Assembly: GCF_013167455.1 (NCBI RefSeq)
Contig: NZ_CP038328.1
From: Escherichia coli O157:H7
GTDB lineage: Bacteria > Pseudomonadota > Gammaproteobacteria > Enterobacterales > Enterobacteriaceae
DNA length: 64,000 nt
Direction: 5' to 3' (one strand)
The notes beneath the pieces are model-generated. The model was not told the DNA's origin, searched no databases, and saw nothing but the letters and a program-made list of their open reading frames with translations. This document shows positions 48,103-49,432 of this stretch, piece after piece. A program made the position numbers and the translations under genes. How positions within the stretch are numbered: the stretch's first letter is position 1; each line of letters opens with the position of its first letter.

Positions 48103-49432
48103 GTGACAACGGTAACGCCCACATATTCTAAGGAGCTTTTTATGAGCACCGCTTTGCTTGACGCCGTGGTGAAGAAAAACCGTGTGCGTTTAATTCCGTT
48201 TATGTTGGCGCTGTATGTGCTGGCGTTTCTCGACCGTTCGAATATCGGTTTTGCCAAACAGACCTACCAGATTGATACCGGGTTGAGTAATGAAGCTTAT
48301 GCGCTGGGAGCAGGCATTTTCTTTGTGGTATATGCGTTTCTGGGTGTTCCGGCGAATCTTTTGATGCGCAAACTGGGGGCCAGAACCTGGATTGGTACGA
48401 CAACACTGCTGTGGGGATTTCTTTCGGCAGCCATGGCATGGGCCGATACTGAAGCGAAATTTCTGATAGTTCGCACTCTGCTTGGTGCTGCGGAGGCCGG
48501 ATTTTTCCCTGGTATGATTTATCTCACCTCGCAATGGTTTCCGCAGCGTAATCGCGCCAGCATTATGGGGCTGTTCTATATGGGCGCACCGCTGGCGTTA
48601 ACACTGGGATCACCGCTTTCCGGCGCGCTGCTGGAGATGCATGGATTTATGGGGTCATCCCGGCTGGTTCTGGATGTTTGTGATTGAAGGATTGTTGGCA
48701 GTCGGCGCTGGGGTATTCACATTCTTTTGGCTTGATGACACACCGGAGCAGGCACGTTTTCTGAGTAAACTAGAAAAAACGTTGCTTATCAATCAACTGG
48801 CAAGTGAAGAACAACAGAAAGTGACTTCTCGGCTGAGCGATGCGCTGCGTAATGGGCGAGTCTGGCAACTGGCGATTATCTACCTGACCATTCAGGTGGC
48901 GGTTTACGGATTAATTTTCTTCCTGCCGACCCAGGTTGCGGCATTGCTGGGAACAAAAGTGGGCTTTACAGCGTCGGTGGTCACCGCCATTCCGTGGGTT
49001 GCGGCCTTGTTTGGGACCTGGCTTATTCCGCGCTATTCCGATAAAACCGGCGAACGGCGTAATGTCGCAGCGCTGACATTACTGGCGGCGGGCATTGGTA
49101 TTGGTCTGTCCGGGCTGCTTTCTCCAGTACTGGCGATCGTAGCGCTGTGTGTTGCAGCCATCGGGTTTATTGCCGTGCAGCCGGTGTTCTGGACGATGCC
49201 GACACAACTGCTTTCCGGTACGGCGCTGGCTGCGGGGATTGGTTTTGTAAACCTGCTTGGTGCAGTGGGCGGGTTTATTGCCCCGATCCTGCGCGTGAAA
49301 GCAGAAACGTTATTTGCCAGCGATGCGGCGGGATTACTGACGCTGGCAGCGGTGGCGGTCATCGGTTCGCTGATTATTTTCACTCTGCGTGTAAATCGCA
49401 CCGTTGCGCAGACCGACGTGGCACATCATTAA
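48103..49432 (+). pseudogene. rhmT: L-rhamnonate MFS transporter RhmT, interrupted by a +1 frameshift
   Basis: single MFS protein split into ORFs 48103..48687 and 48641..49432; shift lies in a G-run near 48650-48660. Confidence 0.7.

Follow-up and report, generated by a model that had tools for sequence, protein, structure and literature searches.

The stretch of DNA analysed here, referred to as the window, comprises 64,000 nt and carries the rhm operon, the rhmR-rhmD-rhmT-rhmA synteny of which is kept in the annotation of identical and related records and in K-12 (Table 1). Along its full length the window matches, at 100% identity over 64,000 nt, FRIK1989 (CP111101), an E. coli O157:H7 strain of LSPA-6 lineage I/II (bioRxiv 10.1101/2022.09.30.510420). 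The third gene of the operon, rhmT (yfaV), is broken. Two overlapping ORFs on the plus strand, 48103..48687 and 48641..49432, are both present in the ORF list; the first matches positions 2-150 of the Pfam MFS_1 profile and the second positions 147-347, and the intact EDL933 protein matches positions 2-347 unbroken. The proposal in the initial annotation that one MFS gene is spread over these two ORFs is thus borne out, as is its naming of that gene as rhmT, which is supported both by the operon context and by 99% DNA identity to K-12 (1278/1291 nt identical). When the frame is restored in silico, 425 of the 429 residues are identical to those of K-12 RhmT/YfaV (P76470), which shares the operon context of the window gene but, unlike it, is encoded by an unbroken ORF. 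The best NCBIfam match of rhmT is TIGR00893, a D-galactonate transporter subfamily model, with a score below the cut-off, and the nearest solved structures are those of DgoT and sialin; DgoT (PDB 6E9N) is a relative of RhmT/YfaV within the MFS anion:cation symporter family. Although an ORF does extend from GTG 48103, as first described, the start of the gene is ATG 48142 in the PGAP model.

Alignment of the gene region with the EDL933 and K-12 alleles reveals a sole length difference, i.e. one extra base, a T at position 48655 in the context ATGGGG[T]CATCC, which causes a +1 frameshift after codon 171 (Gly171). A stop is reached 10 codons past the shift, and the 429-codon uninterrupted rhmT ORF is absent from the window. 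Hydropathy and homology to DgoT and sialin equate the hydrophobic segments at 139-159 and 179-197 with TM5 and TM6, and the shift falls in the short loop that joins them. Comparison with rhmT in related strains, which had been proposed as a check, thus confirms a +1 frameshift at the place first named, relative to the intact EDL933 and K-12 alleles. The join of the two frames had correctly been put at atgggg, the coordinates of which are, however, 48649-48654 rather than 48650-48656. By contrast, the view that the lesion is a change in the length of the G-run does not hold, in that the window has GGGG just as EDL933 and K-12 do, and what it has gained is a T; the expectation that an intact ORF would have three G was likewise mis-specified, since intact alleles carry four. 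Removing one G does restore the 429-aa wild-type protein, because GGT and GGG both encode Gly, but not one of 5426 complete E. coli genomes contains the in-frame sequence that would result, ATGGGTCAT; expansion of the G-run by way of this synonymous intermediate was rejected on the same observation.

The gene is annotated as 'MFS transporter, frameshifted' in FRIK1989, ECP19-598 and other genomes, the PGAP 'frameshifted' flag having been read directly in the FRIK1989 and ECP19-598 records, and as intact in EDL933 and K-12. In itself, rhmT is an ordinary pseudogene that annotation has already recognised; it is its origin that is instructive.

Table 1. Features of the rhm operon in the window, with the basis on which each was assigned
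Feature	Position	Strand	Basis
rhmR/yfaX, IclR-family regulator, first rhm operon gene	46083..46865	+	PGAP annotation of the identical FRIK1989 sequence; ORF list
rhmD, L-rhamnonate dehydratase, intact	46880..48085	+	Annotation; WP_000174589.1 in all O157 strains examined
rhmT/yfaV pseudogene, 1291 nt (intact allele 1290 nt, 429 aa)	48142..49432	+	Annotation
N-terminal ORF: 171 native residues, ~TM1-TM5, then SSRLVLDVCD and stop (181 aa)	48142..48687	+	Translation, Pfam, hydropathy
C-terminal ORF, 263 aa: MDLWG plus native residues 172-429, ~TM6-TM12	48641..49432	+	Translation, Pfam
GGGG run, length as in intact alleles, not the site of change	48651..48654	+	Alignments with EDL933 and K-12
Extra T, cause of the frameshift; TCA at 48655-48657 equals the last 3 nt of IS629 as oriented here	48655..48655	+	Alignment; occupied allele minus 1312 bp
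TCC, the 3-bp target site duplicated around IS629 in occupied alleles; single copy here	48658..48660	+	EC4115, Sakai and strain 350 junctions
K-12-type rhmA start, ATG with upstream AAGGA, now out of frame; 23-codon dead-end ORF	49450..49521	+	K-12 alignment; translation
rhmA/yfaU, 2-keto-3-deoxy-L-rhamnonate aldolase, PGAP model, non-canonical ATT start, 264 aa	49458..50252	+	Annotation

IS629 at the frameshift site and the proposed derivation of IS-free alleles

In EC4115, a lineage I/IIa strain, rhmT is interrupted by an IS1203/IS629 element of 1310 bp, with a 3-bp TCC duplication; the occupied junctions read ...TTTATGGGGCA[TCC] TGAACCGCCCC...GGGGCGGTTCA [TCC]CGGCTGG. The same structure is found in Sakai (lineage Ia), in which annotated N- and C-terminal fragments of rhmT flank the IS1203/IS629 repeat and the IS629 transposase genes are, according to the Sakai annotation, antisense to rhmT. 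The site in both EC4115 and Sakai reads ...ATGGGGCA[TCC]-IS629-[TCC]CGG, or in short form …GGGGCA[TCC]-IS-[TCC]CGG…. Strain 350, of lineage IIc, is likewise occupied, and shares with EC4115 and Sakai a 1418-nt junction segment without any difference; lineages Ia, I/IIa and IIc thus have IS629 in exactly the same place (for EC4115, and for strains 644 and 180 as members of sub-lineage IIc, see PMC7200060). The exact left junction occurs in 196 complete genomes, those of Sakai, EC4115 and strain 350 among them, and at least 1000 short-read contigs end exactly at the junction, the partial proteins on them starting GWFW.... At the right junction of the occupied EC4115 and Sakai alleles, an ORF of 276 aa (MLFTSFSGSLVSRISGAVHPGWFW...) leads out of the end of IS629 and continues in frame within the 3' part of rhmT; it may be that the IS629 end drives a fusion product comprising TM6-12 in occupied genomes.

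The Sakai rhmT::IS629 allele (ECs_5746 / IS1203-IS629 / ECs_3131) resembles that of the window in gene, nucleotide position and serotype, and the window allele is the Sakai allele minus 1312 bp. Unlike Sakai, the window is without the IS and has only a 1-nt remnant, so annotation pipelines report no more than a 'frameshift', from which the connection with the IS can no longer be seen.

Every IS-free allele can be written as the occupied allele minus one deletion. A 1313-bp deletion between 5-bp CATCC repeats, formed by the IS-terminal CA and TCC, yields the intact wild-type allele of EDL933. A 1312-bp deletion that begins after GGGG, with no homology at its ends, yields the window allele, which keeps the IS-terminal TCA; the 1312-bp deletion reproducing this allele is unique, and the allele itself offers one diagnostic nucleotide and zero junction microhomology. 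The UK strains 319, 644-PT8 and 180-PT54 have ATGGGTTCATCC at the same place and are likewise frameshifted; the presence of two different lesions at one nucleotide, in different lineages, is reason to seek a local cause. The UK allele, GGGTTCATCC, which keeps (GG)TTCA, follows from a different 1312-bp deletion with 2-nt GG microhomology, and would take two point events, a substitution and an insertion, if derived from wild type. A 1314-bp deletion with 2-nt CC homology yields GGGGCATCC-GGCTGG, a -1 allele (48654-48661) that was found via a variant ORF in a protein cluster and is present in 8 complete O157 genomes, i.e. CP018245 (strain 472), CP038425, CP038369, CP038366, CP045975, CP032808, CP032803 and CP032791; this allele could equally be the product of CCC to CC slippage from wild type. 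The near-miss junction sequences of the 1312- and 1314-bp deletions are GGGGTCATCC, GGGTTCATCC and GGGGCATCCGG.

On the preferred reading, rhmT in the window is a true pseudogene, and the T at 48655 is very probably the scar of a near-precise IS629 excision rather than an independent inactivating mutation. In an ancestor of the O157:H7 lineages, a 1310-bp IS629 would have entered rhmT at codon 172/173 with a 3-bp TCC duplication, so killing the gene; most strains still carry the element. In the ancestor of the FRIK1989-like clade, 1312 bp would then have been deleted, rather than the 1313 bp that restore the gene, with one IS-derived nucleotide staying behind. The outcome is a +1 shift after Gly171, in the TM5-TM6 loop, leaving a 181-aa N-terminal fragment and an untethered C-terminal ORF; rhmT would thus have been dead before the excision and dead afterwards.

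Excision may well have been promoted by the O157 IS-excision enhancer, IEE. According to published work, the excision of IS629 that IEE promotes in O157 can be precise, but deletions of a few nucleotides or more also occur (PMC9943667; bioRxiv 10.1101/2023.06.07.543989), and some sequenced IS3 excision products keep part of the IS, with up to 6 bp of end homology (PMC8860574). IEE-promoted excision of IS629 and other IS3-family elements in EHEC (Kusumoto et al. 2011, per PMC9943667) resembles the present case in that the IS is removed from the donor site, and in that its products, which include precise excisions and small flanking deletions with little or no homology, are like the rhmT scar. 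The iee gene (Sakai ECs_1305) is 100% identical in 319, 644-PT8 and 180-PT54, and a copy at least 99% identical is present in 487 complete E. coli genomes. The PGAP name for IEE is now 'TOTE conflict system archaeo-eukaryotic primase domain-containing' protein, with the consequence that NCBI files it under a conflict/defence system, not under IS biology.

Published natural cases, including the reversion of lacZ::IS600 in O121:H19 (PMC9397093), stress precise excision that restores function. By contrast, the rhmT scar is off by one base and the gene stays dead. Cut-and-paste transposons, e.g. Ac/Ds and Tc1/mariner, leave footprints of a few element nucleotides at the empty site, which may shift the frame. 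IS629 differs from these elements in that it moves by a copy-out-paste-in route and normally stays at the donor site; when it is lost, this comes about by deletion or repair and not in the course of transposition. In the literature searched, no paper linking yfaV or rhmT with O157 or IS629 was found, and the reading of the rhmT locus as an excision scar is new to that literature, though the process itself is known and the occupied Sakai allele is already annotated.

The principal alternative is that the T arose spontaneously, by a replication error in an intact EDL933-like rhmT, its coincidence with the IS629 site being due to chance or to a local hotspot. Single-base insertions beside short runs do happen, the junction in the window is without microhomology, and the window equals EDL933 over 50 kb save for the T, all of which speaks for such an error. 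However, the inserted base extends no run, and it lies exactly at the IS junction and equals the terminal base of the IS; deletion of 1312 bp from the occupied allele yields only 6 of the ~3900 possible rhmT +1 alleles (p ~0.0015), of which the window allele is one. Moreover, two further frameshift alleles lie within the same 8 nt in other lineages, one of which, the G-to-TT allele, shares 9 nt with the IS-flank junction and belongs to a lineage the background of which is IS-occupied. A templated origin fares no better, in that a search of the 3 kb to each side turned up no template of at least 8 nt for the one mutant allele or the other, with 7-mers at chance level; templated or quasi-palindrome mutation was thus rejected. 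Homopolymer slippage frameshifts and phase-variable contingency loci also involve one-base indels beside short runs, with truncation of surface or transport proteins, but at rhmT the run is still of 4 G, a length insufficient for phase variation, and the added base differs from that of the run. A spontaneous insertion is therefore considered unlikely. A single shared event for the +T and TT alleles was also rejected, because published lineage assignments separate them (I/II against IIc) and either can be reached from the occupied allele by one deletion.

With excision as the preferred origin of the T, the order of events can be considered. Strain 350, which is IIc and occupied, and the scar strain 644-PT8 share three derived SNPs, at 40552, 47629 and 49098, which directly supports the placing of the scar on an IS-occupied background within IIc. 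For the window clade, no SNP in the 50 kb around the locus gives a position relative to the IS-occupied strains: none separates the window from EDL933, and the differences in 644-PT8 are all derived, so that placement by local SNPs was uninformative and published lineage labels were used in its stead. On these labels, the window clade would descend from an IS-occupied ancestor. It is, by a little, the favoured view that the IS629 insertion predates the split of lineages I, I/II and II, and that every IS-free O157:H7 allele is an excision product. If so, EDL933-like strains owe their intact rhmT to a natural revival of the gene, through precise excision at the 5-bp CATCC repeat, and the +T, G-to-TT and -C alleles each go back to a separate excision that narrowly missed. 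In that case the locus would show, in nature, how faithfully the IS is removed under IEE and which junctions result, and would provide ready-made lineage markers that are concealed by 'frameshifted' flags.

Decay of the rhm operon and possible residual function of rhmT

The gene downstream of rhmT also has a damaged 5' end. Compared with K-12, rhmA has a 1-nt deletion in codons 6-7 (TTAAGCAATCCC -> TTAA-CCATCCC), as a result of which the K-12 ATG, with its ribosome-binding site, is no longer in frame. In the Sakai annotation the start is a GTG at 49500 (250 aa), 14 codons further downstream than that in the PGAP model; NCBIfam NF007521 matches rhmA over profile positions 5-267. The O157-type sequence of the rhmA start is present in 260 of the 5426 complete genomes, and among the ~3750 other genomes that match, almost every one has an alignment of 72 nt, one base longer, as in K-12. 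An IS scar was considered for this lesion also, but on inspection of the alignment no single-deletion model was found; it looks like a plain 1-nt loss, some other E. coli differing from O157 by the indel alone.

In 644-PT8 there are, at window-equivalent positions, a synonymous change in rhmD (47629), G319D in rhmT (49098) and P75S in rhmA (49671), the last at the residue beside the catalytic Arg74. Four of the seven derived changes of this strain in 50 kb lie within the 4.2-kb rhm operon, a clustering that fits relaxed selection. The rhm pathway is probably non-functional, with which the rhmA start lesion and probable polarity agree. As regards rhmT itself, the finding alters little: the operon is accessory, the rhmT region being lacking in ~23% of complete E. 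coli genomes, and it is already damaged across O157:H7.

Could the split rhmT nevertheless work, either by assembly of fragments comprising TM1-5 and TM6-12 or by ribosomes shifting +1 at GGG-U? Separately made halves of LacY assemble into a transporter, and several details at rhmT are compatible with something of this type: the break is in a loop between hydrophobic segments, the C-terminal ORF begins with ATG 48641 preceded by GGAG at a spacing of 4 nt, and an in-frame ATG at 48674 and GTG at 48680 occur just ahead of the stop of the upstream ORF at 48685-48687. Separate synthesis of both parts is thus conceivable, but nothing supports function. The ancestral rhmT would have carried a 1.3-kb IS, which implies that its function was by then no longer needed; G319D, a change within a membrane segment, arose in IIc under IS629 interruption, being common to the occupied strain 350, and rhmA P75S is found in the scar strain only, a pattern that fits no selection on the operon. 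In addition, the downstream rhmA is without an in-frame canonical start near the ribosome-binding site. Only small clades have the frameshifted arrangement (4 of 5426 complete genomes), against ~4000 complete genomes in which rhmT is a single ORF, and slippery-site or stimulator architecture is absent; programmed ribosomal frameshifting or recoding was rejected on these grounds. That the split gene retains function is accordingly regarded as highly improbable.

Growth on L-rhamnonate, which had been proposed as a further check, is a weak test of RhmT, since its substrate has been predicted from operon context alone, L-rhamnonate transport has never been demonstrated and K-12 BW25113 does not grow on L-rhamnonate, purified RhmT also being unstable (bioRxiv 10.64898/2026.05.20.726482).

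Spread of the +T allele and other features of the window

The +T allele is also present in the complete genomes of ECP19-598, 17B6-2 and G5295. The +T genomes come from different laboratories and differ mutually in other SNPs and in an ISEc8 insertion; a derived SNP, 53049C, is confined to two scar-bearing genomes, which indicates that the allele is inherited vertically in a diversifying clade. In a collection of 15 billion proteins, the exact 181-aa N-terminal product, which is also encoded by the UK allele, is present on 701 contigs, and the exact window-type C-terminal product on 504. In ECP19-598, a 2.45-kb insertion of ISEc8 (IS66-family) lies near window position ~23206, between yfbM and a pseudogene; it is lacking in the window, EDL933 and 644-PT8, and implies that the scar-bearing genomes are independent assemblies and strains.

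The initial annotation had left open whether the frameshift is a real inactivation or a homopolymer sequencing error; although the site borders a run of 4 G and certain related genomes were assembled from long reads only, a miscall in the G-run is effectively refuted as the source of the T, leaving inactivation, in that the run is unchanged in length and a lone T is added, four independently obtained complete genomes share the allele and it is flagged by PGAP, its products occur on 504-701 contigs, short-read assemblies included, and the T is the only difference from re-sequenced EDL933 in 50 kb, with zero further indels, so that the assembly is not indel-prone.

More generally, a one-base 'frameshift' that is reported as a point lesion, or suspected to be an error, can be all that is left of a mobile element, recognisable as such only against relatives that still carry the element. 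In EHEC rich in IS629 and IEE, scars of this type record past IS occupancy, and together they constitute a natural sample of gene-restoring versus missed excisions; 'intact' alleles, like that of EDL933, may represent reversion and not the ancestral state. The +T, TT and -C alleles, each of which is found in a small set of genomes, may serve as lineage markers, and population look-up for the +T and TT alleles returned hundreds of contigs.

FRIK1989 has another loss-of-function lesion, a premature stop at codon 155 of rpoS (bioRxiv 10.1101/2022.09.30.510420). Elsewhere in the window, a pseudogene annotated as 'hypothetical protein, frameshifted' lies beside yfbM on the minus strand (23329-23946); the annotation is identical in FRIK1989, EDL933, 644-PT8 and ECP19-598, which indicates an old lesion shared across O157. 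The region between glpQ and inaA (58412-62166) encodes a hypothetical protein, a LysR regulator and an MFS transporter where K-12 has only the yfaH pseudogene, and is a small strain-specific island.
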